Source of the DNA: Paludibacteraceae bacterium | GTDB taxonomy: Bacteria > Bacteroidota > Bacteroidia > Bacteroidales > Paludibacteraceae | Assembly: GCA_016280845.1 (NCBI GenBank) | Contig: JAEEHO010000185.1 | Location: 1 to 50,668 of the forward strand | DNA: 50,668 nucleotides | Direction of reading: 5' to 3' | Shown here: in pieces, positions 1 through 50,668 of the stretch | Layout of the letters: each line of letters opens with the position of its first letter | Position numbering within the stretch: the stretch's first letter is position 1 | The notes under the pieces: generated by a model | What the model was told of the DNA's origin: nothing | The model's database searches: none | The model's input: only the letters and a program-made list of their open reading frames with translations | Made by a program: the position numbers and the translations under genes

Positions 1-141
1 AGCAAAGAGCGTACAGCGATTGCTAAGAAATACAACATTACTCTGAAACGTAGCCTTGGGTGGACTCTAAAACAAATTGAAGAGTTCTTCAAGGATAAGC
101 TGCACACTTATGAAGACTTACCTGAAGAAGCTCGACAAAAG
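1..141. repeat. Terminal overlap copy 1, identical to 50528-50668. It marks a circular or terminally redundant 50527-bp unit.
   Basis: Read directly: agcaaagagcgtacagcg...gaagctcgacaaaag occurs at both window ends, 141 of 141 identical. Confidence 0.95.
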
Positions 142-9900: not shown

Positions 9901-12900
9901 TCAAGGGTATCTGTTATGGCTTTACGGATTGCCATTACTGTACCATCCTCGATGACAGCGTATCCACCTGCCTTACGGTAAATCTCAGCCACGTCTACTG
10001 CAGAGTTCCAGCGTACATCCATGCCGTTGTAGAGCAAGAAGTCTTTTATAACTCTGTCTGATCCGGTTACGGATGCACCTGAGTTGAAGCCAATGAAGCG
10101 AAGCCTCTTATTGGAATCAGTAGCACGCTGAGTGATAACATTCATGTAGCTCTGAATGTTCTGCAAGTACTCATCTTTAGAAGTTCCGGGGAACTGTTTA
10201 GCAACCTGCTGATACTGCTCAGTAGCTTCCATACTGCTGAGGTTATACAGACGTGTTGACTGAGAATCATGCAATACGAAAGGAGCTGCGGCATTTCTAA
10301 AGGTTGTTGTCTCTCCGTCGACTCTAAAGCTTATCATGCAAGGATCAGCATTGCGCACGGTACTGTCACAGCTGTAGAACACATCAATGTATTCAGGGTC
10401 AGGCTCGATGTAACCTTTAGCGAATCCTTCTATAGCAGCTACGTTGTCAGCAGTATTAAGAGTGTTGCATCCTGCTTTCCAAAGAGGAGCGACACCTTTA
10501 TCAGACACCTGACGTAAGTACTCGGTAGCATCATCTATGATAGAGTCAACAATGTTTTCGATGTACTTAGAGTTACGTGTCTGTGCATACGCCTTAGCGT
10601 AGGAATTAATCTTGTATGTCTTGTCACCTGCAAATGCATCAAGAACTGCATTGATTTGGTCCTCAGGACACTGGTTCAAAGTTGCAGCTGTCTCGAAGCT
10701 GTTGAAGAACTTCTGAGTACTTCTCTGCTCTGCACAGGTGTTCAGGAAGTCCTGAATCTGCGCATGGTATTCATCCAACTTGTCTACAGCTGTAGTGATA
10801 TACTCAGGAATCTCGTGCTCATATTGTGCTGCAAGCTCAAGGAGCTCATGCTTACGGTCGCTGAGAAGCGCATCGACATTCTTAAATGCATTGTTTACAG
10901 CACTGTTGATATCCAAGGCATCCTTTACAACAGTGCGCATAGCCTCATCTGAGGTGTATAACAATGCTCCCTGATACTTCTGCAAGGTAACATTGAAGAA
11001 CTTGCCAAGCTGTTCTGTCTCAAGCTCGCCCTCTGCATTGAAGAGCACCTGCTTGATGTGCTTGTGGTCTGTCAGCAACTGCTCCTTAATAACGTCTGCA
11101 GAAACATTTAAACCATGGTGTCTCTGCAGCTCCTTACGGAAACCTCTTGCTAAGTTGTTTAGAGCTGCAAGACGGTTCTCTGTACCCTTAGGAGCAATAG
11201 CATCAATGTATTCCTGATAAGGACGGTGCACATAACCTTTATATGCGATGACATCCCTATAGTTTTCCAAGTCCTGTAAATACTTCTCAGTATTCTCAGT
11301 GAAGGCTCTGATGCGCTCAATAAGAGTGTTCTCGACCCTAGGACTAGATAAGTTATCACCATATTCTTTAACGGCCTCTATGAGGCGATTTGAAGCTAAC
11401 TCATAAGCCTCAGGAGTAATAGACCTTGCGATGTTAGCATTGAAACCATCACGCATAGTCTGAACCAAAGTGTGAAGGTTCTCTAAGGAATTGATGACAT
11501 CGCCTCGTTTATAGGCTGCTGCTTCAAAGAACTTAGCGATATCTCCGGACATACGCCTGTAGATACCGATTGTACGCTCTGTACCTAAGAGGTTCTTAGA
11601 TGCGATGACGTTGTTGTACATTCTGCGGTAGTTCATGTATACCGCTTTCAAGTCGGGGCAAACGCCTTCAAAGAAAGGCTGGTTGTGTACGAGCGCATCA
11701 TTGAGGGCCTTGAAGTCATCGAAGCCAAGGCTTCTAGCGTGTTCATCAAGCTCCTCAATAACTTTAAATGCATCTGCACCCTCATCAACCTTGTGCATGA
11801 TTGCACGAATAGGTCCGAGAGTATCTTCTGTAAGATACTTTACAGTAGCATCCATGGCTCCCTGCTGGAACTGCTTGTAGAAATTTGCAGCACTTTCAGA
11901 CATCTTATCAGACGCAAAGAGGACAGACATCTCCTTCCTTAAATCTGCAAACGCATCTGCAAGTGCAGGAGAGTATGCCTTGTGAGTCTCACAGATGTCT
12001 GTGATACGTTTATTTATAGATTCCTGCGCAAAGGCTGCCTTCTTAGCGATGTTGATATCCTGAATGTAGCCGAGGAGTTTCTTAGTCCAGCGTACAGAGC
12101 CTACTACAGCAGCAAGCTGAGGAGCACCTGTAACAAGGATGAACTTGTTCAGCGCTCCGGTAATCTCACTAATGCTGTGTAAGGACTCAACGATTCCGGG
12201 AGTCTTATAGATTACTGAAGCCAGTGCGTTTCCGCTTTCCTTAGTAATCTTAGCAGCGTTCTCTACGCTGTACTTGATATAGTTCTGAGTGAACTTTGTG
12301 ATAGTTTCTCTATACGCGCCCTTGGAGGCAACGTTAAGGACATCCATCTTACCGAGATACTCTCTCATAAGTTTGGATGTAGTGTTTGCGGGTAAGCCGC
12401 GGCCTACCTGTTTAGCAAGCTTAGCGTACCACTTAGGGTCGAACATGTTCAGCATGTAGCCGAGACGAGCATTGGCAACGGCTTCTCGCATGAGCTTCTC
12501 ACCGCCACCGGACTCGATTGCATTCTTGACTGCACGTGCGTAAGCTTTGCCTATTGCAGCTTCTGTATCTGCATTACGTAAAATTGCAAGCTCTCCTGCA
12601 GCTGCATGGTCGCCAAGTATCTTTCTTAAGGAAGAAGGATTGACACCATCGGACTTGATGACACGCACACCTGCCTGATTAATTAAATCAAATGTGTCAT
12701 CAATATATTTTGTTGCAGTAGAATCTACAACTTTAGCGGCCTCTAAAGATGTCAGGCCTGACTTATAGATATCTATCCATGAGCCGGGGTCTAACAAGAT
12801 ATCCATGAAGGTAGTGAGCACACGAGCATAAGCACCACGCTCTTCGGGTGCATAAGTATTGATGTAGTCAAAGTTAGGTGTATCACCGTATGCACCGAGC

Positions 12901-16035: not shown

Positions 16036-16893
16036 TTAGCTTAATAAGCTTGTCCAAGTCTTAGGGCCGCATACACCATCGGGAGCACCACAGTCTTTGT
16101 GGGTCTTCTGATAGTCTGTAACTGCGCCTTTTGTCTGAGCACCAAAGATACCATCGACAGCACCGCACTTAAACCCTAAGTTATTAAGTAACCACTGCAG
16201 GAGCTTAACGTCATCATTCTGACTGCCACTCTTGCAGATAATCTTTTCTACTGTAACCTTACAGGTGGGCTCTACAGGCTTAGGAACTACACCATCTGCG
16301 TACAGTATATCCATATCAACATTGCCGTTGATTCCGGGAACCTTGCCCTTGGAAGAATACTGCCATATCCTGCAGTTCATGTAAGGCTTGCTAGCCCAAT
16401 AAGCTAACCAAAAAGGATACTTTGTAAGCTCGTTCTTATACATAACATGCTCAAAGAAATCCTGATTAGCATAGATGCCTGCCTCATAACCTGTGCGCTT
16501 CATCATCTCACAGAACTGAATGCACATGTCTGTAATCAGTCTGCGATTGTTGTAAACATCTAAGCCATGCTTAGCTTTGTAGTGGTCCATATCTTCCATA
16601 TCGAACCATACGCCAAGCGGAGGCTTCTTGCCATCAAGCATACGAAGTGTGTGTTTAACTTCGCCTGTGACAGCATCGAGGTTTAAGGCATAGCTGTAAA
16701 TGTACGCACCCCAGCGAATTCCAAGCTTCTCACAAGCTGCTACATTCTCTTTGAACTTGGGGTCATCCTGATGTGGGGCATCGCCGCCCCAGCCTAAACG
16801 GATGATAGCGAACTTAATTCCGGACTTCTTGACCTGCTCCCAATCAATATTGCCCTGTGAATTAGATACGTCTATACCTGATATCGAACTCAT
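16036..16893 (-). CDS. Endolysin: GH25 muramidase with a C-terminal PG_binding_1 domain.
   Basis: The N-terminus GIDVSNSQGNIDWEQVKKSGIKFAIIRLGWG matches the GH25 pattern. The C-terminus LLQWLLNNLGFKCGAVDGIFGAQTKGAVTDYQK matches PG_binding_1. Confidence 0.85.
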   Translation of the reverse strand: MSSISGIDVSNSQGNIDWEQVKKSGIKFAIIRLGWGGDAPHQDDPKFKENVAACEKLGIRWGAYIYSYALNLDAVTGEVKHTLRMLDGKKPPLGVWFDMEDMDHYKAKHGLDVYNNRRLITDMCIQFCEMMKRTGYEAGIYANQDFFEHVMYKNELTKYPFWLAYWASKPYMNCRIWQYSSKGKVPGINGNVDMDILYADGVVPKPVEPTCKVTVEKIICKSGSQNDDVKLLQWLLNNLGFKCGAVDGIFGAQTKGAVTDYQKTHKDCGAPDGVCGPKTWTSLLS

Positions 16894-17657: not shown

Positions 17658-18779
17658 CTACCACTGCGCAAGAATTAATGCCGGGCTGCCATCAACAGTT
17701 CCAGTATATGCTGTCGTACCTACTTCGGTATTTACAGATAGCGTATGAGCAGTAGCATCATAGTTATATGAAAGTACATCAGCAAATTCTATCTCGCTAC
17801 TATTTGAGACACCATTCCTGTAGTAAGTTATTTGCACGCCTGTAACTTGAAAAGAACTTCTTTTTAGTATGGCTTCTAATGCAGGGTTTTGTGCAAAAAA
17901 TGCTACATGTAGTATTGGATCTGCTCCTTGCTCATGACGAGTAACCACTCCGAGCATTGTGAACGCAGTGCCTGCAGGTGCGAAGGTAGCAGGATTTGAG
18001 AGTGCAGCTAGCTGCGTCTTTAATTTACCAACAGCTTCACGCAATCCCGGAAGGGATGCAGGTTCTGCATCACCGGCGCTATTATAGTAATCTGATAGCA
18101 ACTGAGCAGGATTGCTAGAAAAGTCCTGTGGAGTTGTAAGAATTGGTAGAAACGTTATGGGAGGTCCGGAATGATTAAAGCGGGCCATAAATACAACTTC
18201 AACACGTGCACGTATAACTCCAGCAGAACTGGCAGGCGCTATAAACGTACCAGAAGGGGATGCGCTAGTAAAGCTAGCAATAATAGGAGATCCTGCCGCG
18301 TTCATATTACGTATATCAAACATCAGGTCAGACAGGCTGTTGGTCGGATCTTTAAAAGACGCGTAATAACGCTGCCTACTCTGTAATGAAACTTCAAACA
18401 AAGTTTTTGTAATAGCGGCTGTGTTTGTGCCGTCTCCAAATGCCCAGCATTTGCAGCCGCCGCTATAAGTTACCTTGAGGCCATATGTATCTGCGGTGCT
18501 GGTCCCAAAATGGGCTAGGATTTCAGACGTAGCATGTCCTACAATATATGCTCCTGCCGTACCTATTGGAGGCTCAAGTAATCCTGCACGCACATATGCA
18601 TCATCTGCGAGATCATCAGCAGCGTGTGCTGTAGTAAGTGCATTATCAGCAGTTGTCTGGGTGCTCGTGAGTGCAGCCTTCAGTTCATTTACAGCGCCTG
18701 AAATTGTTTGAGCAGTAGTGCTCAATACTTCAGTACCTATCTTTAAAAGTTGTTTTAAATTAACTCTATGTGCTCCCAT
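17658..18779 (-). CDS. Tail fibre / receptor-binding protein, paralog 1.
   Basis: The N-terminal motif VNLKQLLKIGTEVLSTTAQTISGAVNELKAALT is shared with the neighbouring gene. The C-terminus is divergent. AGGAGG lies upstream. Confidence 0.65.
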   Translation of the reverse strand: MGAHRVNLKQLLKIGTEVLSTTAQTISGAVNELKAALTSTQTTADNALTTAHAADDLADDAYVRAGLLEPPIGTAGAYIVGHATSEILAHFGTSTADTYGLKVTYSGGCKCWAFGDGTNTAAITKTLFEVSLQSRQRYYASFKDPTNSLSDLMFDIRNMNAAGSPIIASFTSASPSGTFIAPASSAGVIRARVEVVFMARFNHSGPPITFLPILTTPQDFSSNPAQLLSDYYNSAGDAEPASLPGLREAVGKLKTQLAALSNPATFAPAGTAFTMLGVVTRHEQGADPILHVAFFAQNPALEAILKRSSFQVTGVQITYYRNGVSNSSEIEFADVLSYNYDATAHTLSVNTEVGTTAYTGTVDGSPALILAQW

Positions 18780-18794
18780 AATACCTCCTAAGCG

Positions 18795-19805
18795 TTAGTG
18801 TCCGATTGTTGCAAACAACACTGCGGGCACAGGAAGGACAACATCTCCTGAGTACACGACAATCATATCGTCAAAAACCATCATGTCGTACTGTCCGGTG
18901 GACACTGTGAACTGTCCTGTAGCTCCAGTCTGTGCAGTATACAAAACAGAACCGATGACTCTAGGATGATGGTTACCCCTTGCACTCATCTGTGCATAAC
19001 CTACAGGAAGTTTTATCAATCCAATATGATTTGTTATCGAAAAACCATAACAAACTATACCCGGCATATTAGTAGCAGCACTGAAGTTGCTTAAGGCATT
19101 TAAAGGAATGAACTCTCTTACTGCAGCGCGTAACGGATCACTGCTTATACTTTCCGCTAAGGCATTACGATTCTGTAGATTCAGTATATCGTTTTGGGTG
19201 ACTTGCGAAGCTACAGCAGTAGGCACCAACATAACTGCGTATGCAGGAGCATGTGCAAAACTCGTACCTGCGTGAGATATACGCACACGCACACGAGCAG
19301 CTGTGTCTAAAACAAAGCTTCCAGTATACTTGGCTCCTGTACCGCTGTTACCCGCAGCGACTGTTCTAATAATAACGCCAGTATCTACATTCAATACTGA
19401 AAAGGAGGCCGGATAATTATCAATGCTCCAAACGATAAGCGTGTAATTTCCTGCTTGGAGCGCTATATCTCCTACATGTATAGCATAAGCACTATTCGGA
19501 AAAGGGGTTCCTGTTAACACTACACGTCCCGCACTATTAACAGTACAATGAACCTGCTTAGTTTGTGAGTTAACGTCTACCTGCCCGCACCAGCCTTCCA
19601 TGAGTGGAATCAAGTTGTATCCTCGCATTTGCGCACTAATTTTTTCAGTAGCAGCAAATGCATTTGCTTCAGCAGCATTTTCGCTAGCTTCTGTTACAGC
19701 GCTCTTCAGCTCATTTACAGCACCTGAGAGCGTATGTGCAGTAGTATTGAGAACTTCTGAACCTATCTTCAATAGGTCTTTTAGGCGTACTGCAAAATTA
19801 GCCAT
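18795..19805 (-). CDS. Tail fibre / receptor-binding protein, paralog 2 (start revised from 19862).
   Basis: The ATG at 19805 is preceded by GAGGAGGAAAACA and overlaps the upstream stop (ATGGCTAA). The N-terminus is MANFAVRLKDLLKIGSEVLNTTAHTLSGAVNELKSAVT. Confidence 0.65.
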   Translation of the reverse strand: MANFAVRLKDLLKIGSEVLNTTAHTLSGAVNELKSAVTEASENAAEANAFAATEKISAQMRGYNLIPLMEGWCGQVDVNSQTKQVHCTVNSAGRVVLTGTPFPNSAYAIHVGDIALQAGNYTLIVWSIDNYPASFSVLNVDTGVIIRTVAAGNSGTGAKYTGSFVLDTAARVRVRISHAGTSFAHAPAYAVMLVPTAVASQVTQNDILNLQNRNALAESISSDPLRAAVREFIPLNALSNFSAATNMPGIVCYGFSITNHIGLIKLPVGYAQMSARGNHHPRVIGSVLYTAQTGATGQFTVSTGQYDMMVFDDMIVVYSGDVVLPVPAVLFATIGH

Positions 19806-20922
19806 TGTTTTCCTCCTCTTCCCAATGTAACCACAGGTCATCGGTTTCTGTACCAGCGGCATTCTTGTTATCTACGTAGCAAGTGCTTAACTTAGCGTTT
19901 GTCTGTACAGCTTTTGTCCAAGCATTATTCGCTGTCAGTGAAACGTTACCTAAGAGTTTGTTAAGCGCTCTAATCTTATTGTTGATAGTCATTATACAAG
20001 CTGCTATAGCATTGCCGATAGTTGTAAACTCTGCAGCATCCCACGCAGCAATGTAGGTAAGAACATCTGCGAGAGCAGATGCACTATAATCAATAGAGCT
20101 GGTATCTACCGTCAAAATGCAGTACTTGTTGTGCGCAAGTGCTTCATCGATTACAGCACGTACAGCTACGGTATCAATGGTATGGGTGGCATCTATGCGC
20201 AATACCGGAAGCGTAGCAGTGTAGTCTTCTTCATAAAACGCCTCTGAATCAACTGCTTCTGTTGATGTTTGAATATTTACTGCATACTTATAAGAGGCAG
20301 CGGCGGCATTAATAACGTCTTCATTCTGAATGCCTCCGGGGTATACAAATACACCGGGTGCGTTAAAATTCTCAGCCATGTAGTCCTCAGCTCGGTCCAT
20401 GATGTCATAGGCAGCATCATAACTCAAGGACTCCAAAGACGAACCATCATTACCAACGGTGTTCATACCGTGCCCTGCAATTTTAAGAGCCTGTAATTGT
20501 GCAAGCGTAGGATATGCCGCAGATGCTCCAACAAGAGCAGTGGCTACACAGAAGTCGCCAGCAATCTCGTGGGCATCTAAGAAATCCTTAAAGCTCAATG
20601 CACTGGCCTGATAGTCCAAGTTGAGCACTGAGAAGAGTGGATTGTTAAGTGCTGCACTTGTCTTGTTGACAACTGAAGCAGCAAGGGCTGCAATTTCAGC
20701 ACGAACAGCTTCTGTAAGAGCTTCCTGCAACTGCTCGACACTGATGTCTGCAATGGCATCGGGAATACCCTCCGTCTGTAAGTACTGTAACCAACGTGCG
20801 TTATTATCTCCCTGTGCGATTAAGAGATTCAACAGAGCGTTGAACTCCACTGCAGAGAGGATTTCACGCGACTTATAGTTTAAGGTTTTATTAATATATA
20901 TCGGTGTAAACTGTTCAGCCAT
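19798..20922 (-). CDS. Tail fibre/spike-associated protein. The central domain may be a polysaccharide-deacetylase-like esterase.
   Basis: It lies between the large tail protein and the fibres. The sequence AGHGMNTVGNDGSSLESLSYD...PGVFVYPGG weakly resembles NodB-type motifs. Confidence 0.4.
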   Translation of the reverse strand: MAEQFTPIYINKTLNYKSREILSAVEFNALLNLLIAQGDNNARWLQYLQTEGIPDAIADISVEQLQEALTEAVRAEIAALAASVVNKTSAALNNPLFSVLNLDYQASALSFKDFLDAHEIAGDFCVATALVGASAAYPTLAQLQALKIAGHGMNTVGNDGSSLESLSYDAAYDIMDRAEDYMAENFNAPGVFVYPGGIQNEDVINAAAASYKYAVNIQTSTEAVDSEAFYEEDYTATLPVLRIDATHTIDTVAVRAVIDEALAHNKYCILTVDTSSIDYSASALADVLTYIAAWDAAEFTTIGNAIAACIMTINNKIRALNKLLGNVSLTANNAWTKAVQTNAKLSTCYVDNKNAAGTETDDLWLHWEEEENNG

Positions 20923-35021: not shown

Positions 35022-35086
35022 ATCCCCTGCCACTACCCATAACACTACTCGACCTGCGACAAGACCTACCTCAGTCCATGTCAACA

Positions 35087-35114
35087 TTGCTACCGACAGG
35101 GGGTAGGGTATAAA
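35087..35114 (+). promoter_or_regulatory. Candidate sigma70-like promoter for the 35207 operon.
   Basis: The sequence is TTGCTA-16 nt-TATAAA. It is followed by the hairpin CCCCTCCCC-14 nt-GGGGAGGGG (35149-35180), located just upstream of the RBS. Confidence 0.45.
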
Positions 35115-35206: not shown

Positions 35207-35524
35207 ATGATAGCAATCACTCTTAACAATCTCTTCGCAGCAACCATCATCCTTGTTTGCCTCATCGCACTCGTACTGGATATCATGGCATACGTAGCAG
35301 CAACCCATTCAATCGAAGCGCCTCAGAACGCTGAAGCCGAACTCCCTACATGGTGCTTACCGCCTAAGGTAAACAGAGAGCTTGTAGAGGACTTTGACCT
35401 CAACGAGATGCCTATCGCCTTCTTAGAACTCCTCACACTTGATAAAGCAGACGGTACTACACGACCTGCGCAATATCTCATAGAGGACGGAGAAATCACA
35501 GGAGTGATTATTGATGAAGACTAA
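35207..35524 (+). CDS. Small membrane protein (105 aa).
   Basis: TAAGGAGG lies upstream. The N-terminal TM segment is LFAATIILVCLIALVLDIMAYVAA. Confidence 0.55.
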   Translation: MIAITLNNLFAATIILVCLIALVLDIMAYVAATHSIEAPQNAEAELPTWCLPPKVNRELVEDFDLNEMPIAFLELLTLDKADGTTRPAQYLIEDGEITGVIIDED

Positions 35525-36029
35525 CTTCTATAACCAAGAGAAAGAATTCGTACCTATTAAAGGATACGAGCATGAGTATAAGATTAATCCTCACGGACAG
35601 ATACTCAGTCTACTCACTGACCAATACGTGACTACCTCAGTAGATTCCAAAGGCTATCTGATAGTACGCTTATATAAAGATGGACACTGCAAAGTCAAAC
35701 GTGTCCATATCCTTACAGCAGAAACCTTCATACCCAATCCTCAGAACTTACCCGTCGTAAACCATATTGACGGTAATAAGCAAAACCCGGATGTAACCAA
35801 CCTAGAATGGACTACGTTCTCAGAAAACACCTTACACGCACACAGAACAGGACTCATAACAAAAACTAACAATCAAAAGGTTGTTCGTGGCGATGGTAGG
35901 GTGTACGCCAGTGTGACAGAAGCAGCAAAAGACAACAACATCAGCAAGTCAGCAATAAGCAAAGTCATATCCGGCGAACGTAGAACCGCAGGTGGATACA
36001 CTTGGAGAAAGGAGAATGAAGATGGCTAA
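35511..36029 (+). CDS. Free-standing HNH homing endonuclease (NUMOD4 / HNH_3 / NUMOD1-like).
   Basis: Motifs are PIKGYEHEYKINPHGQILS, GYLIVRLYKDG, VHILTAETFIPNPQNLPVVNHIDGNKQNPDVTNLEWTTFSENTLHA and a C-terminal HTH-like ISKSAISKV. Confidence 0.85.
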   Translation: MMKTNFYNQEKEFVPIKGYEHEYKINPHGQILSLLTDQYVTTSVDSKGYLIVRLYKDGHCKVKRVHILTAETFIPNPQNLPVVNHIDGNKQNPDVTNLEWTTFSENTLHAHRTGLITKTNNQKVVRGDGRVYASVTEAAKDNNISKSAISKVISGERRTAGGYTWRKENEDG

Positions 36030-36481: not shown

Positions 36482-36922
36482 ATGGAAATTTACGTAAACA
36501 ACAACGTCGTTGTAGTAACAACAGAGATCCCCGCGGCTGTCATTGAGGATGCAGGTACAGACGGACACGCACTTCTTGACGAGAAGGGCAACACACTTTA
36601 CACAGTTAAGCTCACAAAGGGCTGTAAATCAGCAGACTTCAGCAAATTCGGCTTCTGCGGTAACGCAGTTATCGATGGCAAGGTTGCAGCAGTAATCATT
36701 GAGCCTATCGGAACAACTCTCAAGGCTATCAAGAAGAAATACGGTCAGGCAGCAATCGCAGCTAAGCAGTTCATGCCCGTTATGCTCTCAGCAATCAATG
36801 CTTCAGCAGAGGCAGTTACACAGGCATTCACACCTTCTGCAGACCTCATTTTCTCACAGGCTGCTACAGAGGAAGTTACAGCTGAAGAGACAGCTGATGA
36901 CGAAGCTGACACTGAGGAATAA
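36482..36922 (+). CDS. Hypothetical protein with an acidic C-terminal tail (146 aa; start revised from 36437).
   Basis: The ATG at 36482 is preceded by TAAGGAGGA. The C-terminus is EEVTAEETADDEADTEE. Confidence 0.55.
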   Translation: MEIYVNNNVVVVTTEIPAAVIEDAGTDGHALLDEKGNTLYTVKLTKGCKSADFSKFGFCGNAVIDGKVAAVIIEPIGTTLKAIKKKYGQAAIAAKQFMPVMLSAINASAEAVTQAFTPSADLIFSQAATEEVTAEETADDEADTEE

Positions 36923-37000: not shown

Positions 37001-37237
37001 ATGATTAAATTGACTATTGGTACTAACACAGAGCGTAAAACCGTTATGGTTAACCCTAAGGACAACGCAAAAAACGTCCTCACTCAACAGGGTATCAACA
37101 TCGACCGTACAGCAATGCACTTGAACGGTTCACTTATTCCCGCTGTTGACCTCAACAACACCTTTGAAGGCCTCGGCATCGCAGATGAATCCGAAGCAAT
37201 GATTATCGCAGTTGTTAAGGCAGACTCAGCACAGTAA
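37001..37237 (+). CDS. Candidate ubiquitin-like (beta-grasp, ThiS/MoaD-like) small protein of 78 aa, with no C-terminal GG.
   Basis: The ATG at 37001 is preceded by GGAGGA. Translation is MIKLTIGTNTERKTVMVNP...AMHLNGSLIP...FEGLGIADESEAMIIAVVKADSAQ. The size, strand/helix pattern and genomic neighbours (JAB and E1-like) support the call. Confidence 0.35.
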   Translation: MIKLTIGTNTERKTVMVNPKDNAKNVLTQQGINIDRTAMHLNGSLIPAVDLNNTFEGLGIADESEAMIIAVVKADSAQ

Positions 37238-37247
37238 GCAATGTATT

Positions 37248-37280
37248 GGGCACTTCTATCTTAGAGGTGCCCTTTTTATT
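37248..37280 (+). terminator. Intrinsic terminator/attenuator between the Ubl-like gene and the enzyme genes.
   Basis: The sequence is GGGCACTTCTA-tct-TAGAGGTGCCC followed by TTTTTATT. The RBS of the next gene follows immediately. Confidence 0.6.
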
Positions 37281-37294
37281 AAGGAGACTTTACT

Positions 37295-38818
37295 ATGGCT
37301 TGGAAACGAATCGCAACAAATCTTTCACCTATTTTTCAGACAGCATGTGCCCGAGCATACAACCGAGTATCAACAATCCTGTACAAATCTCGTATCCCCT
37401 TTACTACATATGATGTACAGGATGCATTCTCATGGTTGATGTTTCCAATTTATGAAGGCGCTACTGAATTACAGTTTGAGATAGACGCACAGGTAAGAGT
37501 AAAATCTTACGTACTTCCCAAAGACGTGCCTATCGAAACTACCGCTGACCGATTTGTAAACAATTACATTGTGAACGATTCTCGAAACCGCTCACGCAGA
37601 CATGTTATCATTATAAACACATCCACAAACAAAGCGCTTGAAGAACAAATCTGCGCTAAACTTGATGCGTTCACACAACGCGAAAGAGCACCACGTGAAT
37701 CATTCTATCAAGTTTCTACTATCCCAGTTCCGGCATTAACGCTAACACCTGTACACCGTGTGCGCTGTTACGATAAAATATTCGTTAATGATGAAGGCGA
37801 AGTATTTGTCACAAACATCATCTTAACAAATCTTTACGGAACTGAGATCTGCTCACGCATAAGTGCAGCCTTACTAGCACAGTGTACAAGATATAAAGAG
37901 TTCGTAAACAACGATGAAATCTTTGCAGCCCTTGTAAAAGGATATGCCGAAGCAGATGCAGAAATAGTCAACAACTGCGTACATCAGATATACGATGCTA
38001 AACTAAATGAGCTCAACGCTGCACGTATGGCAGAAGCTGTCAAAACAATCACAACCTTAGCCACAAAAGACATTACAAAAGCTGCTGAACAAACAGTAGT
38101 AGAGGCACAGCGTCGTGTACAAAACATTGAAGAAGATTACAAAGACGCACTAGGTAGACTCCGCAATGCGCAGCTCAATCTCTTAGAAGCTATGACATTA
38201 GGAACAACCGAACGTGAGCAACAGATTGCAGACTTCTTAACCAGCATCACACCTAACATAACCCATCTTCAGAAAGGTGACAACAATGCCATCTACTTAT
38301 CATACAAGACACCGTTATTATACTTTGAACCTAAGCACATGGAACTGATGCTCAACTCGTCTCGCCCTAATCCTTGTAACACTGCTCACCCTAGTATCAG
38401 AAGCCTGTTAAAAGAAGTATTTATAGATAAGACTTATCAATTCATCTTTGACACAGGTGTTGACATCGACTTACGTTACAATGATATCTACTACTGGGCT
38501 CCACCGACCAACATTGTTCTTCAGGGTATCCCTAATCCTCATCATAAGTACTACAACTGTTGGGGAGACAACAAGCCTTACATCAAGAAAGCACTCGTCG
38601 CTCATGATATGATAGCTGCAATCACACAGATAATCGCTGCATTCAGTGGCATGAACTTAACTGATACCGCAGTAGTTCGTAGGTTTGTAGAAGAAGAACT
38701 CATGACAGATTCTTACAAACGTATCCCTTGTCTCAAGAAATTAGCAACCGGAGAACTCTTTACTATTGAACAGTATTGTAACAATTACACCGCAGCACAG
38801 GAGGCTAACAATGCATAG
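37295..38818 (+). CDS. 507-aa protein with an unknown N-domain, a central coiled coil and a C-terminal domain with an E2/UBC-like Cys motif (tentative).
   Basis: AAGGAGA lies upstream. The C-terminal sequence YQFIFDTGVDIDLRYNDIYYWAPPTNIVLQGIPNPHHKYYNCWGDNKPYIKKALVAHDMIAAITQIIAAF resembles the beta-meander, HPN-like flap, Cys and helix layout of E2 folds. Confidence 0.3.
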   Translation: MAWKRIATNLSPIFQTACARAYNRVSTILYKSRIPFTTYDVQDAFSWLMFPIYEGATELQFEIDAQVRVKSYVLPKDVPIETTADRFVNNYIVNDSRNRSRRHVIIINTSTNKALEEQICAKLDAFTQRERAPRESFYQVSTIPVPALTLTPVHRVRCYDKIFVNDEGEVFVTNIILTNLYGTEICSRISAALLAQCTRYKEFVNNDEIFAALVKGYAEADAEIVNNCVHQIYDAKLNELNAARMAEAVKTITTLATKDITKAAEQTVVEAQRRVQNIEEDYKDALGRLRNAQLNLLEAMTLGTTEREQQIADFLTSITPNITHLQKGDNNAIYLSYKTPLLYFEPKHMELMLNSSRPNPCNTAHPSIRSLLKEVFIDKTYQFIFDTGVDIDLRYNDIYYWAPPTNIVLQGIPNPHHKYYNCWGDNKPYIKKALVAHDMIAAITQIIAAFSGMNLTDTAVVRRFVEEELMTDSYKRIPCLKKLATGELFTIEQYCNNYTAAQEANNA

Positions 38819-39608
38819 TATAAGATTAAATGAGAAGAGCCTTGAAGAAATGATAGACCTTTTAAAGGAACAGTTTCAGAAGGCTAACAACACCACAGAC
38901 AAGATTTCATTTACCTATAAATTTTCACATCCCGCAGAAGAGAAGGTGTGCTTAAAAATTGAAGAAGCAGCATGGAGAAAAATCAACGCACTCGTGGCAA
39001 CCTGCGATAAAGAAGTCGCATGGCACTGCACCGCTACTAAGACTGATAGTTCGTACATTATTGAAGATGTGTTCGTCTTTCCTCAGATAATCAGTGCAGC
39101 AACCGTAACCACAGACGATACAGAATACGCTAAGTGGTTAATGGCTCTGCCCGATAATGTATTCAACAAGCTCAGAGTACACGGACACTCACACGTAAAC
39201 ATGGGCGTAACACCTTCCGGAACAGATACCACCTATCAGGAAAATATCCTCACAAACGTTAAAGACTTCTTTATCTTCATGATACAGAATAAGAAAGGTG
39301 ATATCTGGAAAGCCATCTTTGACGTAGAAGCAAACGTAGTCTACGAAAATGAAGACATCCTCGTAATTACTCCGGATGTAACTGCAAATGTATGGGCTGC
39401 AGCACAGATAGAAACCTATGCAAAACCTGCAGTTATGCCTACAATAATACAGCAGCCTACAGTAACAGCAGCAAGCACTAAACCTAAAGCTGTTGTAAAA
39501 GAAAAAGGAAAAAGAGGCCGTTCGCCTAAAACAAAGACTGAACATGATTATGAACAGCTGTACATGCGTCAGTACTACGGTTACGGCTATCCTGAAGACT
39601 GGGATTAA
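38811..39608 (+). CDS. JAB/MPN (JAMM) metalloprotease-domain protein (start revised from 38766).
   Basis: The ATG at 38811 is preceded by AGGAGG and overlaps the upstream stop. The complete JAMM motif HGHSHVNMGVTPSGTD (HxHx7Sx2D) is present, with an upstream Glu (KEVAWHC). Confidence 0.8.
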   Translation: MHSIRLNEKSLEEMIDLLKEQFQKANNTTDKISFTYKFSHPAEEKVCLKIEEAAWRKINALVATCDKEVAWHCTATKTDSSYIIEDVFVFPQIISAATVTTDDTEYAKWLMALPDNVFNKLRVHGHSHVNMGVTPSGTDTTYQENILTNVKDFFIFMIQNKKGDIWKAIFDVEANVVYENEDILVITPDVTANVWAAAQIETYAKPAVMPTIIQQPTVTAASTKPKAVVKEKGKRGRSPKTKTEHDYEQLYMRQYYGYGYPEDWD

Positions 39609-39621
39609 ATAAGGAGGCAAT

Positions 39622-40338
39622 ATGGACACTTCAAAAGTTTTAGAATATTTCGACCCCTCAGAATACAGATTCGCATACAATGTCATCGGTTGCGGAGCGA
39701 TCGGTTCCCACGTGTGCGAACAGCTTACACGCTTAGGTATCACTGAAGTCCACATCTATGACTTCGATACCGTAGAAGCACACAATATCACCAATCAGAT
39801 GTTCTGCGACAGTGACATCGGAATGAGCAAAGTCGATGCTTGTGAAGCTGCAATGAAAGCAATCAACCCGGAAATTACGGTTTACAAACATCCCGAAGGA
39901 CTTACTCCTCCGTATGTAATCAACGGAATTTGCATCTTATGTGTAGATAACATCGACCTTAGACGTGAAATCGTAAAAGCTAATCAGTTCAATCCAAACT
40001 GCGCTGCCTTCTTAGATTTCAGAATGCGTTTAGTAGATGCACAGCACTACTTTGCAGATGCAAAGAACCGCTTTGAAGTAACAGAACTTCTGAACACCAT
40101 GGCCTTCACACATGAAGAAGCCATGGACGCAACACCTAAGAGTGCGTGCGGTGTAGAACTCAGTGTAGTCTACACAGTCAAAGCAATCGTATCTTTTGGA
40201 ATGGCAAACATGGTTAAATGGTTGATGTCGAGAGATGACTATAGAACCATGATGCAGGTAAACATGGACAGTTTCATAGTCGATGCTTTCAGAGCAAGAC
40301 CCAGACCTACTGTCAACATTGCAGCCGACACGAAGTAA
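39622..40338 (+). CDS. ThiF/MoeB/E1-like adenylyltransferase-domain protein.
   Basis: TAAGGAGG lies upstream. The Rossmann loop is VIGCGAIGSHVCEQLTRLGI. Other motifs are YDFDTVEAHNITNQMF (the NxxNQ equivalent of the NRQ motif) and ILCVDNIDLRREI. Confidence 0.75.
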   Translation: MDTSKVLEYFDPSEYRFAYNVIGCGAIGSHVCEQLTRLGITEVHIYDFDTVEAHNITNQMFCDSDIGMSKVDACEAAMKAINPEITVYKHPEGLTPPYVINGICILCVDNIDLRREIVKANQFNPNCAAFLDFRMRLVDAQHYFADAKNRFEVTELLNTMAFTHEEAMDATPKSACGVELSVVYTVKAIVSFGMANMVKWLMSRDDYRTMMQVNMDSFIVDAFRARPRPTVNIAADTK

Positions 40339-40434
40339 GGCATACTTTTTACTAAGGTGGGGTACAGGTAATCTTTTAAGTACCACTCCTAAATAAAATT
40401 TAAAGCCACCCCCCGGTCATAGAAAGGAGACACT

Positions 40435-41505
40435 ATGTACATAAATTACTACAGTCGCTGCAGATACATGCCTAATGCTACCCCGGAACAACTTGAGAAA
40501 GAAAAAGAACGCAACCTCGGACGTATCGTAACCAAACATATTGGCAGTATGCAAATGTCAGAAAAACAATGGATCGCAATCTGTAAACTACAAGCTATCC
40601 TACATGACTATTGCATCGGACGTGTGTTTGCATTAGCCGTAGATGTTGAAAGATCATGGCAGACAGAATGTTACGATATGAGTTCACGCTATATTCAATT
40701 TGACATTCCTAAACGGAGAGGTGGCACTAGACATCTCTGTGCACCTGATGAAGAATTGATGCAACTCCAGAAACGAGTACTCCACGTACTGACTAAAGAG
40801 CTGCACATCCTACCTCATAATGCTGCACACGGTTTCACCCCACATCGTAACTGCAAGACAGCATTAGAGTATCATCGTAAGCATCACGCACGTTGGTTCT
40901 TAAAGTTAGATATCAAAGACTTCTTCCCAAGCACCACAGCTAACATGGTGTATCGTGCAATACGCGATAATGCCATACTACACCGATTAAACGATACATC
41001 TATAAATCGACTAATCAACTTCTGTGTACTTGACGAAACTTTACCTCAGGGTGCGCCAACGTCACCGTTCTTAACGAACCTTGTGATGCAGCCTTTCGAT
41101 GAAGCTATTACAACGTACTGTAAAGTAAATCATCTGTGTTACACAAGATATGCAGATGACATCCTGATTACGAGCCCTACTACCTTTGAAATAGCCCCAG
41201 TCATCAATGATATAAAGAATATTCTTTTTGGCTTCTACACCATTAACGATGAGAAAACAAGATACGGCAGTTTCAACGGAAGAAACTGGAACCTCGGGCT
41301 TATGTATAATAATAAGTTTGAGATTACCGTAGGCCATGCCAAAAAGAAACTTGTTAAGAATCTCATACACAACTTTTTTACAAAACCTGAATGTCACACA
41401 GTTCAGAATTGGTTACACCTCATGGGTGTCGTCGGCTACTGCGCTTATATTGAACCGGAGTACTTCAACAAGTACCTCGAACAACTCAAGGCAGCAGAAC
41501 TATAA
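40435..41505 (+). CDS. Reverse transcriptase, retron-type/retron-like, with no accessory domains.
   Basis: GAAAGGAGA lies upstream. Motifs are YIQFDIPKRRGGTRHLCAP, AAHGFTPHRNCKTAL, FLKLDIKDFFPST, LPQGAPTSPFLTNLVM, YTRYADDILITS and INDEKTRYG. Confidence 0.9.
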   Translation: MYINYYSRCRYMPNATPEQLEKEKERNLGRIVTKHIGSMQMSEKQWIAICKLQAILHDYCIGRVFALAVDVERSWQTECYDMSSRYIQFDIPKRRGGTRHLCAPDEELMQLQKRVLHVLTKELHILPHNAAHGFTPHRNCKTALEYHRKHHARWFLKLDIKDFFPSTTANMVYRAIRDNAILHRLNDTSINRLINFCVLDETLPQGAPTSPFLTNLVMQPFDEAITTYCKVNHLCYTRYADDILITSPTTFEIAPVINDIKNILFGFYTINDEKTRYGSFNGRNWNLGLMYNNKFEITVGHAKKKLVKNLIHNFFTKPECHTVQNWLHLMGVVGYCAYIEPEYFNKYLEQLKAAEL

Positions 41506-41507
41506 AA

Positions 41508-41692
41508 TGCGCTAGAAGATTACCTTGTATTACGATACAAGCCTCTGAATCAATTTCAGAGTGTCATGATAAGCAGATGTTTCTGCACTAGACCTGAGGT
41601 CCCCTGCAGCGCCTCCAGCCGCGGAAGGACACGCGGAGGAGGCGACTGCCAGGGTCGCTCAGGTCTACGTACAGTAATAAAATGGTAGCGCA
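41508..41692 (+). ncRNA. Retron-like msr/msd module 1 (a1 - G - two short hairpins - 77-nt GC-rich hairpin - a2).
   Basis: The a1 arm TGCGCTA (41508-41514) pairs with the a2 arm TAGCGCA (41686-41692), and a G follows a1 at 41515. Short hairpins lie at 41524-41541 and 41543-41561. The long hairpin lies at 41590-41666, closed by AGACCTGAG/CTCAGGTCT. Confidence 0.45.
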
Positions 41693-41805
41693 TAAAGGCA
41701 AGATAACACCTTGCCTGCTTACCAGACATTTTGATAACGACTATCCCATAAAGTCTCCTTTCAAAATGTCAACCCTTATAAGTTTAATCACTTCACTTAG
41801 AAGCC

Positions 41806-41843
41806 CCTTTAACTAGGTTAAAGGTATCCGCCTGTTTTTTTTT
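41806..41843 (+). terminator. Hairpin plus T9 tract ending the RT-proximal structured RNA region.
   Basis: The hairpin CCTTTAAC-tag-GTTAAAGG is followed by 10 nt and then TTTTTTTTT (41835-41843). Hairpins at 41696-41716 and 41725-41770 precede it. Confidence 0.35.
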
Positions 41844-42370: not shown

Positions 42371-42379
42371 ATTAAGTGA

Positions 42380-42518
42380 CGCTTTAGAAGGTTACATTAC
42401 CGCAACATGGCTGCTAACTAAGTTAGCACACACGCAATGTTATAAATGCATTCATCCGTACATGCAGCTCGTCTCCGTAGGAGACATTGAGCTGCAGTAC
42501 GACGCTTAAAGTAAAGCG
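42380..42518 (+). ncRNA. Retron-like module 2 (shorter).
   Basis: The a1 arm CGCTTTA (42380-42386) is followed by G and pairs with TAAAGCG (42512-42518). Hairpins lie at 42412-42428 (TGCTAAC-taa-GTTAGCA) and 42463-42496 (nested 8+6 bp). The 5' word GCTTTAGAAGGTTAC resembles GCGCTAGAAGATTAC of module 1. Confidence 0.35.
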
Positions 42519-42529
42519 CACACATATGC

Positions 42530-42742
42530 CACACTTTAGTAAAGTTTATTCTGAATGAATACCCATTCAGATGTACTAACTAAGTTGGTACAAACACAAA
42601 GTCTTGAACACATGGCAGATCCGGAAGCCTCACTCCCTGAACGAGCCCAGAATGACGACGAATAAAATGCTATTCGTCGACATTCATGGGACCGTTCAGG
42701 AGTTCAGGTTCCGGATCTGCCACGGTATTAAAGTAAAGTGTG
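42530..42742 (+). ncRNA. Retron-like module 3 (a1 - G - two short hairpins - 108-nt hairpin - a2).
   Basis: The a1 arm CACACTTTA (42530-42538) is followed by G and pairs with TAAAGTGTG (42734-42742). Short hairpins lie at 42550-42571 and 42573-42591 (GTACTAAC-taa-GTTGGTAC). The long imperfect hairpin lies at 42614-42721, closed by GGCAGATCCGGAA/TTCCGGATCTGCC. Confidence 0.45.
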
Positions 42743-42766
42743 AATAATTTTATTTAGGAGGCACCT

Positions 42767-50040: not shown

Positions 50041-50668
50041 ATGTAAGTGGACCCACGTAGATATCACAGACACAACACACTTATACGCCATGGTAGAATC
50101 CTTTAATCGCACACTGTCTCGTGGTGTCCTACTTGCATCAGCACTTGATACTGAGACAACAGGGCTTCATCATATCTATGATAAGCCCTTCTTGTTCCAG
50201 TTTGGATGGTGCACTTCCGAAGGCACAGGGTTCACCTACTTGGTGGATTTGGAAGAAACCCCCGAACTCGCTATCCGTACCATTACTATCTGGAATACCT
50301 TAGTTGCGCAAGCACCTATCTATTTAGGCCATCACGTATCGTTTGACCTGAATATGCTCCTTAACATAAATGTACCGTATTGGGCTCCCAATATTTCTGA
50401 TACACAGATATGGATTAGATTGGGTTCTGATGCAATCCCTGAACGTAAAGGTGGCGTACCTCTCGCACTTAAGAAGTTCGCTACGAACTATATTGATAGA
50501 AGCGCAGCAACCATGGAAGCTAAGCTGAGCAAAGAGCGTACAGCGATTGCTAAGAAATACAACATTACTCTGAAACGTAGCCTTGGGTGGACTCTAAAAC
50601 AAATTGAAGAGTTCTTCAAGGATAAGCTGCACACTTATGAAGACTTACCTGAAGAAGCTCGACAAAAG
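50033..50668 (+). CDS. polA: Family A DNA polymerase, N-terminal 3'-5' exonuclease part. It is 3'-truncated by the window edge and continues at base 142. The full protein is about 736 aa.
   Basis: The ATG at 50033 overlaps the stop of the primase-helicase gene (ATGCTTAA). An ExoI-like motif ALDTETTGL is present. The frame is open to base 50668. Confidence 0.9.
   Translation, partial: MLKCKWTHVDITDTTHLYAMVESFNRTLSRGVLLASALDTETTGLHHIYDKPFLFQFGWCTSEGTGFTYLVDLEETPELAIRTITIWNTLVAQAPIYLGHHVSFDLNMLLNINVPYWAPNISDTQIWIRLGSDAIPERKGGVPLALKKFATNYIDRSAATMEAKLSKERTAIAKKYNITLKRSLGWTLKQIEEFFKDKLHTYEDLPEEARQK
50528..50668. repeat. Terminal overlap copy 2, identical to 1-141.
   Basis: Same string as bases 1-141. 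Both copies lie inside the same open reading frame. Confidence 0.95.

Follow-up and report, generated by a model that had tools for sequence, protein, structure and literature searches.

A conserved phage gene module that brings together a ubiquitin-like protein, a JAMM protease, a ThiF-type E1 and a retron-type reverse transcriptase

The 50,668-nucleotide contig JAEEHO010000185.1 (hereafter the window, by which we mean the whole stretch of DNA analysed) is, by its gene content, a phage genome, and it carries on its plus strand four consecutive co-oriented genes that encode a ubiquitin-like protein (Ubl), a 507-residue protein of a family that we call BIG, a JAB/MPN+ metalloprotease (JAB) and a ThiF-type E1 (E1). 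These four are part of a module of six genes, in which they are preceded by a small gene, UP, and followed by a retron-type reverse transcriptase (RT) and its adjoining RNA (Table 1). Each part is of a known kind: a Ubl, a JAMM protease, a ThiF-type E1 and a retron RT with an RNA. New, as far as our searches show, are the fixed combination, the BIG and UP families, a Ubl that ends in alanine, fusions of Ubl to UP, the position of the RNA 3′ of the RT, and the phage host. The gene set and its conservation, the folds and motifs that Ubl, JAB, E1 and RT display, the way in which the Ubl C-terminus is conserved, the fusions and a covarying structured RNA are computational observations; from them we lean, if modestly, towards the interpretation that the module encodes a conjugation cascade resembling that of the bacterial Bil system and coupled to a retron.

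An earlier note on this DNA, written from its letters, had taken the four genes for a complete conjugation-type cassette beside the replication genes of a phage. The four co-oriented open reading frames stand where it placed them, the motifs that it quoted (GIPNPHHKYYNCWGDN in BIG, HGHSHVNMGVTPSGTD in JAB, and GCGAIGS, NITNQ and CVDN in E1, together with the Cys422 codon of BIG) are all in place, and both the phage origin and the location beside replication genes, here in the early and replication region of the plus strand, were borne out by the phage gene content of the window. As a unit, the cassette is right in that the four genes are conserved together and too small in that UP upstream, and the RT with its RNA downstream, belong to it as well.

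To define the extent of the module, loci were annotated by calling open reading frames and by profile searches with alignments built in this analysis. The same neighbours recur around BIG and JAB homologues, in the co-oriented order UP (~115–135 amino acids), Ubl, BIG, JAB, E1, zero to three other genes, and the retron-type RT. A scan with the JAB profile returned 289 IMG/VR contigs, 80 of which (22–134 kb) were taken for locus analysis, and a scan of one genome per species returned at least 23 loci; the latter lie nearly all on contigs of gut metagenome-assembled genomes (MAGs) binned as Clostridia or Bacteroidales, one being labelled an archaeon, and most of these contigs are phage-sized. 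All-against-all clustering over 116 loci found JAB in 116, UP/Ubl, BIG and E1 in 113 each and the RT in 103, while the next plus-strand family after the module genes was present in only 33. The order Ubl-BIG-JAB-E1 is kept in at least 113 of the 116 loci, and because the same four genes recur in the same order on phage-sized contigs, their arrangement is not due to chance. Moreover, wherever the RT is present it lies downstream of E1 in the same orientation, and, in a sign of co-divergence, RT distances between loci are correlated with E1, BIG and JAB distances (Pearson 0.75–0.82) about as well as the latter three are with one another (0.81–0.92). Several loci (L023-L032, L056 and L097) have two UP-Ubl gene pairs each.

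Among the loci found, of which the genome scan gave at least 23, the module is largely restricted to phage-sized contigs, which argues for a function on the side of the virus. Among GenBank phage records, BIG had no tblastn match, and a JAB relative was found in 1 of 50,697, an unannotated faecal contig. Two loci on longer contigs stand apart. The 429-kb contig of the isolate Clostridiales Family XIII bacterium PM5-7 (L114) encodes full-length UP, BIG, JAB, E1 and RT, and no Ubl reading frame was detected at this locus. On a 244-kb Oscillospiraceae MAG contig (L115:8007-9510) the module is decayed, with a truncated JAB, a 65-residue E1 fragment and an RT in three fragments; this copy is probably a prophage remnant.

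Table 1. Coordinates of the module and of other features named in the text. Positions are those of the window unless a locus number precedes them.
Feature	Position	Strand	Description
UP	36482-36922	+	146 aa; acidic C-terminal tail; immediately precedes the Ubl gene in most loci
Ubl	37001-37237	+	78 aa; ends VVKADSA-Q
Terminator-like hairpin and T-run	37248-37280	+	Between Ubl and BIG genes; candidate attenuator
BIG	37295-38818	+	507 aa; variable N-terminal alpha/beta domain, ~80-residue single helix (222-301), conserved C-terminal domain (318-507)
BIG motif GIPNPHHKYYNCWGDN	38525-38572	+	Residues 411-426; His416 at 38540-38542, Cys422 at 38558-38560
JAB	38811-39608	+	JAB/MPN+ metalloprotease; 265 aa from ATG; basic, then Tyr/Gly-rich C-terminal tail
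JAB motif HGHSHVNMGVTPSGTD	39180-39227	+	H124-G-H126-S-H128-x7-S136-x2-D139; Glu68 at 39012-39014
E1	39622-40338	+	238 aa; single ThiF-family adenylation domain
E1 Gly loop G23-S29	39688-39708	+	GCGAIGS; NITNQ and CVDN motifs also present
E1 Cys176	40147-40149	+
RT	40435-41505	+	356 aa; retron-type; YADD at 41149-41160; NAAHGF (NAxxH) motif
Retron-like noncoding RNA	41507-41693	+	Begins 2 nt after the RT stop codon
a1 ATGCGCTA	41507-41514	+	8-bp closing stem with a2
a2 TAGCGCAT	41686-41693	+	8-bp closing stem with a1
Candidate priming G	41515	+
msr-like hairpins	41524-41586	+	Three, short
msd-like hairpin	41587-41670	+	84 nt
Hairpin CCTTTAAC/GTTAAAGG	41806-41843	+	10-nt gap, T9 run; conserved in L091
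Ubl-UP fusion	L007:4187-4789
Ubl-UP fusion	L035:5814-6434
Ubl-UP fusion	L066:5844-6452
Ubl-UP fusion	L112:5922-6566
3,692-aa reading frame	3960-15038	-	Among structural genes; no Pfam or PHROG match
Endolysin	16036-16893	-	GH25 muramidase with PG_binding_1 domain
HNH/NUMOD homing endonuclease gene	35511-36029		Three genes upstream of the Ubl gene

The ubiquitin-like protein, UP, the predicted enzymes and BIG

Modelling confirmed the 78-residue protein as a ubiquitin-like beta-grasp. An AlphaFold2 (AF2) model built from 44 homologues (pLDDT 91.6, pTM 0.78) has the element order beta-beta-alpha-beta-beta-beta and a floppy tail at residues 73–78. Searching the PDB with this model in Foldseek gave 189 matches at E ≤ 1e-3; the best 50 of these 189 are all ubiquitin or engineered ubiquitin variants (TM 0.5–0.65), and the top ubiquitin match has an E-value of 2e-5, a probability of 1.0, a TM of ~0.57 and ~21% identity. 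Sequence profiles alone gave marginal matches to Ubl families. Thus, structure prediction and Foldseek, with ubiquitin as the best match, uphold the beta-grasp that the earlier note had suspected from the pattern of the sequence.

The C-terminus of the family is informative. Across 90 distinct homologues from the retrieved loci, conservation extends through ...VK(A/S/T)D(N/S/G)A and is followed by 0–3 variable residues. Stand-alone Ubls end exactly at the conserved alanine in 51 of 89 cases, and the rest continue beyond it with 1–3 residues that are not conserved (R, F, Q, M, AA, VL, ID and others). Gly-Gly occurs in only 2 of the 89, which terminate in ...DGG-CC rather than ...D(N/S)A, with Gly-Gly followed by a two-residue cap; QbsE, the thioquinolobactin carrier, ends in GG-CF. 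One source labels two Ubl homologues ‘sulfur carrier protein ThiS’. The earlier note had remarked on the missing Gly-Gly and had considered that processing by JAB might compensate for it, a proposal that fits a family conserved up to an alanine and extended by 0–3 residues or by a fused protein.

That fused protein is UP, the fifth conserved gene, which has no relative in Pfam or the PDB. In four lineages (L007, L035/L037, L066 and L112) Ubl and UP are joined in frame as a single protein of ~200 residues, the Ubl domain coming first, with the junctions ...VKAAAA|AAVAVEF, ...VVKADNA|AYIKIAG, ...TKTDNA|ASIVVVG and ...AKTENA|ATATVIG. Each junction falls just past the conserved Ubl alanine, at the position of the start codon of free UP. 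An endopeptidase would therefore be needed to free the Ubl C-terminus, and on account of these fusions we regard UP as the best candidate for a partner or target of Ubl. At L007, the fusion stands side by side with free copies of both UP and Ubl.

The hairpin that the earlier note had described after the small gene is real: a terminator scan found it at 37248-37272, where a stem of 11 bp, 6 of them G-C, closes a loop of 3 nt and TTTTTATT comes next. The spacer between Ubl and BIG is 98% identical to that of an 85%-identical phage (L091), and 36 of 86 distinct related loci have a terminator-like hairpin, of differing sequence, after their Ubl gene.

The protease gene, called mechanically, begins at a TTG at 38766; its start is most likely the ATG at 38811, which overlaps the end of BIG by 8 nt, because a 91%-identical homologue has 263 residues. 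Over 52 homologues there is no variation at Glu68, His126, Ser127, His128, Ser136 and Asp139 (E...HSHx7SxxD), and in the family profile these catalytic residues line up with the active site of RPN11 (E 0.02), in agreement with the JAMM protease of the earlier note. The motif supports a canonical MPN+ metalloprotease with a predicted proteolytic activity. Pfam Prok-JAB gives weak or marginal matches in 8 of the 52 members, so the family appears to be a distant, unnamed branch; it has at least 615 homologues, all unnamed.

The 238-residue protein is confirmed by its sequence as a ThiF-type E1, as had been proposed, with a match to PF00899 above the cut-off (E 4e-21). Models for ThiF, MoeB, Cap2-type and PRTRC proteins match it over residues 20–120 only, each below its own cut-off. 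Its best PDB relative is UBA5, and TcdA and Uba4, besides ThiF and MoeB, are among its best NCBIfam and PDB matches. Seventy-two homologues share an invariant GxGxxG (G23, G25, G28), D47, D49, N55, N58, Q59, K70, D109 and R114, the nucleotide-binding and Mg residues of such a domain being among them; in 71 of them Cys176, which lies in a TPxSAC motif, is invariant as well. Matched by eye, this cysteine may correspond to ThiF Cys184 or MoeB Cys187 in the crossover-loop position. Members of the family are ~223–238 residues long, and the E1 of the window has no second adenylation domain, zinc CxxC pairs or fused E2.

BIG founds, on the evidence of its sequence, a large unnamed family. An exhaustive profile search found 2163 representative clusters at E ≤ 1e-3, with proteins of typically 450–670 residues whose conservation is concentrated in the C-terminal ~290. 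Only two residues, His416 and Cys422, are fully invariant in 156 homologues; conservation is almost complete at Pro415, Gly424 and Asp457 and for an aromatic side chain at 423. The AF2 model of BIG has a pLDDT of 80 overall and of ~90 for residues 318–507, an alpha/beta domain, and the invariant H-x5-C sits within this confidently modelled part. The order of elements at the motif (a helix, a pair of strands, a pair of helices, another pair of strands, the P-H-x5-C loop and three helices) recalls, as a lead from the model, a UBC domain with an insertion.

The earlier note had seen in this domain the layout of an E2, which was an interpretation rather than an observation, and similarity to UBC or Prok-E2 appeared in none of the tests made, nor did they turn up any other known fold or family. 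Foldseek against the PDB gave a best E-value of 0.08 with no UBC fold among the matches; against BFVD it gave one clear uncharacterised homologue (E 7e-16) and a second uncharacterised match (E 4e-4). In 22 BIG members there was no match to Pfam UQ_con or Prok-E2 at E ≤ 10, searches of Pfam, NCBIfam, PADLOC and PHROGs returned coiled-coil noise only, PDB profile searches with the full length and with the C-terminal domain alone gave nothing above noise, and hhalign against three eukaryotic E2s gave a probability of 0.1%. Two leads towards sulfur chemistry in BIG were dropped: weak structural matches to CsdE and SufE (E 0.3–0.7), since their probability is below 0.1, and Pfam matches to DsrC, since these fall on residues 197–247 of four near-identical proteins, in the helical linker and outside the cysteine domain.

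The reverse transcriptase and the RNA 3′ of it

By its sequence, the RT is a member of the retron clade. It matches the NCBIfam model for the retron St85 RT with an E-value of 7.6e-59 and 199 bits; because this score is below the 235-bit cut-off of that model, we do not count the protein as a member of the St85 subfamily. Its best 25 matches in PADLOC are all to retron RT classes, RT_II-A being the top one (1e-53), and the RT motifs, including YADD, are kept across 78 homologues. A diversity-generating retroelement was considered and rejected, as the whole window holds no template or variable repeat and the RT models matched are those of retrons.

The sequence that follows the RT gene is strongly structured. 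The 388-nt gap 3′ of the gene has a minimum free energy (MFE) z-score of -9.3, and its first 190 nt have one of -10.3; the stretch 41551-41670 is among the two most stable 120-nt windows genome-wide (-64 kcal/mol, as against a mean of -27.4 with a standard deviation of 7.1). From these data and from the layout given in Table 1, we infer that 41507-41693 is a retron-like noncoding RNA, from which multicopy single-stranded DNA (msDNA) is predicted to be made. The hairpin and T9 run at 41806-41843 possibly mark the 3′ end of a transcript that spans the RT and this RNA.

Several comparisons between loci bear on this RNA. Firstly, the RNA has the same 3′ placement relative to the RT in related loci, and its layout recurs, with differing sequences, at L001 (z -11.3), at L018 (z -10.4) and at many further loci. 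Secondly, perfect a1/a2 repeats of at least 10 nt that start within 40 nt of the RT stop codon are found in 20 of 92 distinct loci, as compared to 2 in shuffled sequences and 7 in coding controls, and the base 3′ of a1 is G in 25 of 33 cases. Thirdly, the two hairpins after the a1-G align over 19 loci including the window, with 85.4% of positions paired as compared to 58% in shuffled sequences and a covariation score of 0.814 as compared to 0.311 (0 of 500 shuffled sets reach it) or to 0.15–0.25 with the partners slid; double changes occur at 11 of 11 pairs, and the G-U pairs fit the plus strand. The covariation analysis is limited to the region right after the a1-G, the MAFFT alignment of the whole RNA over distant loci being too poor. 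Finally, the spacer after the RT is 84.5% identical to that of L091, as against 74.1% for the RT and 73.8% for the next gene, and compensatory changes between the two phages preserve the long stem. Of 83 RT-bearing loci, only 17 have their most stable 120-nt window in a long hairpin after the RT; the long stem thus appears lineage-specific, and the part formed by a1, the G and the two hairpins widespread.

A search of Rfam yielded nothing at the gathering threshold and, with the limit set to E ≤ 10, no match to a retron family. A scan of IMG/VR for homologues of the window RNA gave four matches to ATGCGCTAG...GGTAGCGCAT, which lie without module genes and were discarded as chance.

Distant loci (e.g. 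L063, L072, L074, L077, L080, L082-L084, L103 and L106) have a second class of RNA after the RT. Here a1 ends in GTAAT and is followed by G(G/T/A)ATA, TGTAG precedes a2, two covarying hairpins are present, of which the second is GCTTC...GAAGTAAC, and a ~200-nt A/C-rich stretch with little structure takes the place of the long hairpin.

One gene downstream of the retron RNA, the window holds a second highly structured non-coding stretch (42371-42766, MFE z -12.2), which could be an origin, a second template for the RT or a regulatory RNA. Within it lie the genome's most stable 120-nt window, formed by a hairpin at 42613-42722 whose arms measure 52 nt, as well as a 22-bp hairpin near 42457-42502, two copies of the palindrome CTAACTAAGTTAG (42414 and 42576) and repeated TTAAAGTAAAG motifs. 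This stretch is 84.9% identical to that of L091, with compensatory changes, as against 71–74% for the flanking genes, and L012 has a hairpin of -95 kcal/mol at a comparable distance from its RT.

A 34-nt direct repeat (TGTCAACATTGC..CCGACA...) occurs at 35079-35112 and 40311-40344, twice in the genome as against 0.03 expected; the first 20 nt of its copies are identical except at two N positions. The first is found in non-coding sequence ahead of the gene at 35207, and the second covers the last codons of E1, just ahead of the RT.

A coupled conjugation cascade, its alternatives and known systems

In the cascade that we favour, Ubl would be made as a precursor with 0–3 extra residues or fused to UP, and JAB would trim it to expose the conserved C-terminal alanine (Ala77 in the window). 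E1 would adenylate the carboxylate of Ubl and probably take Ubl over as a thioester on Cys176, from where it would move to Cys422 of BIG with the assistance of His416. The variable N-terminal domain and long coiled coil of BIG would choose the target, UP being the best candidate for this or for a partner of Ubl, and JAB could also undo the conjugation. The RT would copy part of the 3′ RNA into msDNA, and the RT-msDNA complex may regulate or scaffold the cascade, or the cascade may regulate RT-msDNA, as retrons do with their effectors. The hairpin after the Ubl gene may keep UP and Ubl more abundant than the enzymes. Every chemical step of this scheme is inferred, from the established chemistry of E1, Ubl and JAMM proteins and from the precedents of BilABCD and retrons, and so are the role of BIG, the target, any link with the RT and what the phage gains; candidates for this gain are the exclusion of rival phages (as Bil does for bacteria), the neutralisation of host defences and a role in replication.

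A stronger form of this proposal, which we put forward tentatively and find somewhat doubtful, holds that reverse transcription is mechanistically coupled to Ubl conjugation in a virus. The module would then be a new type of retron whose effector is a cascade of post-translational modification rather than a toxin, with a previously unrecognised family of His/Cys transferases standing in for an E2 and with a C-terminal alanine as the site of Ubl activation. During infection, RT-msDNA would gate conjugation or direct it, either onto UP or onto proteins of the host or of rival phages.

A number of points weigh against the favoured cascade. The classical Gly or Gly-Gly terminus for activation is replaced in the Ubl family by alanine. 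The arginine of the NLxRQ motif of MoeB-type E1s is likewise absent: in a comparison by eye with the MoeB sequence, the phage protein reads N55-I-T-N58-Q59, and Asn58 is invariant in the 72 homologues. BIG is not recognisable as an E2, the Pfam, NCBIfam, PADLOC, Foldseek, PDB-profile and hhalign tests having given no UBC or Prok-E2 similarity, so that its operon position and two invariant residues are what suggest a carrier. The conjugates, thioesters and msDNA of the scheme are predictions from the genes. Two further points concern the link to the RT. Three lineages (L002-5, L097 and L105) have UP-Ubl-BIG-JAB-E1 without an RT within the retrieved DNA, and the Ubl set can therefore exist without a retron. 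Moreover, the 34-nt repeat may be a phage promoter or operator that gives the RT its own transcription start; since one copy overlaps the end of E1, the RT may be transcribed separately.

These last two points lead to the alternative that survives best, namely that Ubl, BIG, JAB and E1 (with UP) are a stand-alone conjugation cassette, and that the RT with its RNA is a separate retron, adjacent through shared descent of the early region. It would explain the lineages that lack the RT, the one to three unrelated genes that separate E1 from the RT in many loci, and a possible promoter for the RT formed by the repeat at the end of E1 and the 96-nt spacer that follows. Yet the RT is found in 103 of the 116 loci, always downstream and co-oriented, whereas other flanking families reach at most 33 loci, and this across contigs of 22–134 kb whose neighbourhoods are otherwise different; the distances of the RT track those of E1, BIG and JAB; and a fixed association with accessory genes is how known retrons are defined (PMC7736814). 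We therefore consider mere adjacency unlikely.

Comparison with the Bil system bears on the nature of the cascade. In bacteria, the ubiquitination-like defence operon bilABCD, of types I and II, runs in the order Ubl (bilA), E2 (bilB), JAB deubiquitinase (bilC) and E1 (bilD), and BilA has a conserved and then variable C-terminus whose extension is removed by the JAB enzyme BilC (PMC10557695). The phage module shares with it the order of a small Ubl, a carrier slot, JAB and E1, by position only in the case of BIG, which is not a recognisable E2; a Ubl conserved to one small C-terminal residue and then extended variably for removal by JAB; and a JAB and an E1 adenylation core that are homologous at superfamily level. 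It differs in the terminal residue, which is Gly in Bil and Ala in the phage Ubl, in the E1, which in Bil has tandem inactive and active domains and a CYS domain and in the phage a single ThiF domain of ~230 residues, and in the E2 slot, which holds the ~500-residue BIG without a detectable UBC relationship. In addition, the phage module has UP (sometimes fused to Ubl), a retron RT and an RNA, and it resides in phages, whereas Bil is found in bacterial defence loci.

A more distant possibility is a sulfur-carrier pathway, in which Ubl would be of the ThiS/MoaD type and would be thiocarboxylated by E1 after trimming by JAB, as in CysO/Mec+ or QbsE/QbsD, while Cys422 of BIG relayed the sulfur to a nucleic acid (possibly msDNA or tRNA) or a metabolite. 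The ThiS/MoaD-ThiF/MoeB systems with JAMM variants (CysO/Mec+, QbsE/QbsD, TtuB/TtuD) do share with the module a small beta-grasp protein, a single-domain E1 with a cysteine (conserved here as in ThiF and MoeB) and a trimming JAMM peptidase; ThiF, MoeB, TcdA and Uba4 are among the best matches of E1, one source has named two Ubl homologues ThiS, Ubl homologues ending in GG-CC resemble QbsE with its GG-CF, and BIG has its weak matches to CsdE and SufE. Against this, the Ubl family ends in Ala and lacks Gly-Gly, its model is closer to ubiquitin, and fusion to the module protein UP, together with the Bil-like gene order, indicates chemistry on proteins. Over the 116 loci the module has no conserved partner of a sulfurtransferase or biosynthetic kind, be it a rhodanese, a cysteine desulfurase or a thiazole or molybdopterin synthase. 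The DsrC matches of BIG are noise, and its CsdE matches have a probability below 0.1. Such a pathway is, on balance, improbable. Least probable is that E1 acts like MccB or PaaA on the Ubl C-terminus and yields a toxin or signal, for example a stable adenylated adduct: MccB and PaaA are among its PDB relatives (E 2.6e-7 and 7e-4) and an Asn or Ser is conserved beside the terminal Ala of Ubl, but UBA5 and Uba1 match E1 at least as well, the MccB and PaaA matches cover the shared Rossmann core only, the substrate is a folded 78-residue ubiquitin-like domain rather than a short peptide, and the invariant Cys176 and the His/Cys protein BIG suit a thioester relay better.

Type II CBASS, with Cap2 and Cap3, shares an E1-type adenylation domain and a JAB protease that act on the C-terminus of a protein in a module of immune type. 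PADLOC E1-E2 models match the phage E1 with E 1e-14 over residues 20–94 of the Rossmann core only; the phage protein has no E2 fusion, and its substrate is a separate Ubl. No conserved CD-NTase partner is apparent among the plus-strand families of the 116 loci, in which no search aimed at CD-NTases was made.

Mobile combinations of Ubl, JAB and E1 have precedents. Operons 6a-6e of Ubl, JAB, E1 and E2 genes and the lambda tail-assembly Ubl-JAB pair TAPI/TAPK have been described (Iyer, Burroughs and Aravind 2006, PMC1779556), and a phage Ubl with a JAB partner is thus not without parallel. No class among 6a-6e has an RT, UP or BIG, and TAPI/TAPK stands among tail genes and has no E1, unlike the phage module, which stands among early and replication genes.

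As to retrons, thirteen types have been distinguished in a source that writes the unit as (msr-msd)-RT and in which the word ‘ubiquitin’ is absent (PMC7736814). The module has in common with them an RT of the retron clade with YADD and NAxxH motifs, whose closest models are St85 and type II-A, an adjoining RNA with a1/a2 inverted repeats, a G after a1, and short then long hairpins, and a fixed set of accessory genes. In contrast to the order given in that source, the RNA follows the RT on its 3′ side; the accessory set consists of the Ubl, E1 and JAB genes, the hosts are phage genomes, the RT scores 199 bits as against a 235-bit cut-off, and msDNA is a predicted product. Full-text literature searches, whose coverage is incomplete and whose silence is absence of evidence only, returned no paper that connects, in phages, a retron RT with genes for ThiF, JAB or Ubl.

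Both retrons and the Ubl systems of bacteria have been known as defences of the host, and a conserved combination of the two in phage genomes would show viruses using such chemistry for themselves and would connect two fields so far separate. If the coupled reading is true, bacteriophages would have in this module their first native system for Ubl conjugation, and a retron would for the first time be seen to serve a virus rather than a cell. The module makes up a very large amount of unannotated sequence in the gut virome, with 2163 BIG clusters, at least 615 JAB homologues and 289 IMG/VR contigs, almost all members of which are unnamed. For enzymology, BIG may represent a new class of E2-like enzymes and Ubl a modifier activated at alanine; as tools, compact retrons with the template RNA 3′ of the RT may be of use for retron-based DNA production and editing.

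The phage genome around the module

An exact 141-nt direct repeat at the two ends of the window (1-141 = 50528-50668) marks it as a complete genome of 50,527 bp that is circular or was assembled as a circle. Its assignment to a phage is supported by minus-strand genes for a terminase, a portal, a major head protein, a GH25 endolysin and a 3,692-residue protein, and by plus-strand genes for a DNA polymerase, a primase-helicase, an SNF2 helicase and a YqaJ exonuclease; the Ubl, BIG, JAB and E1 genes lie in this plus-strand early and replication region. No integrase was found among the subset of reading frames scanned against Pfam and PHROGs, and no close relative of the genome among the 50,697 GenBank phage records. 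The terminase is 35% identical to that of the Paenibacillus podophage API480. The GH25/PG_binding_1 endolysin and the mostly Clostridia MAG bins of related contigs together suggest a Gram-positive gut bacterium as the host.

Among the structural genes, an 80-nt direct repeat (78% identical) lies at 18678-18757 and 19704-19783, at equal relative positions in two neighbouring genes for proteins of ~360 residues, and these minus-strand genes (17658-18779 and 18795-19862) are probably tandem paralogues. The HNH/NUMOD gene upstream of the module is also present in L001 and L091, and in L002-5 an HNH gene directly follows E1; homing endonucleases thus recur around the module.

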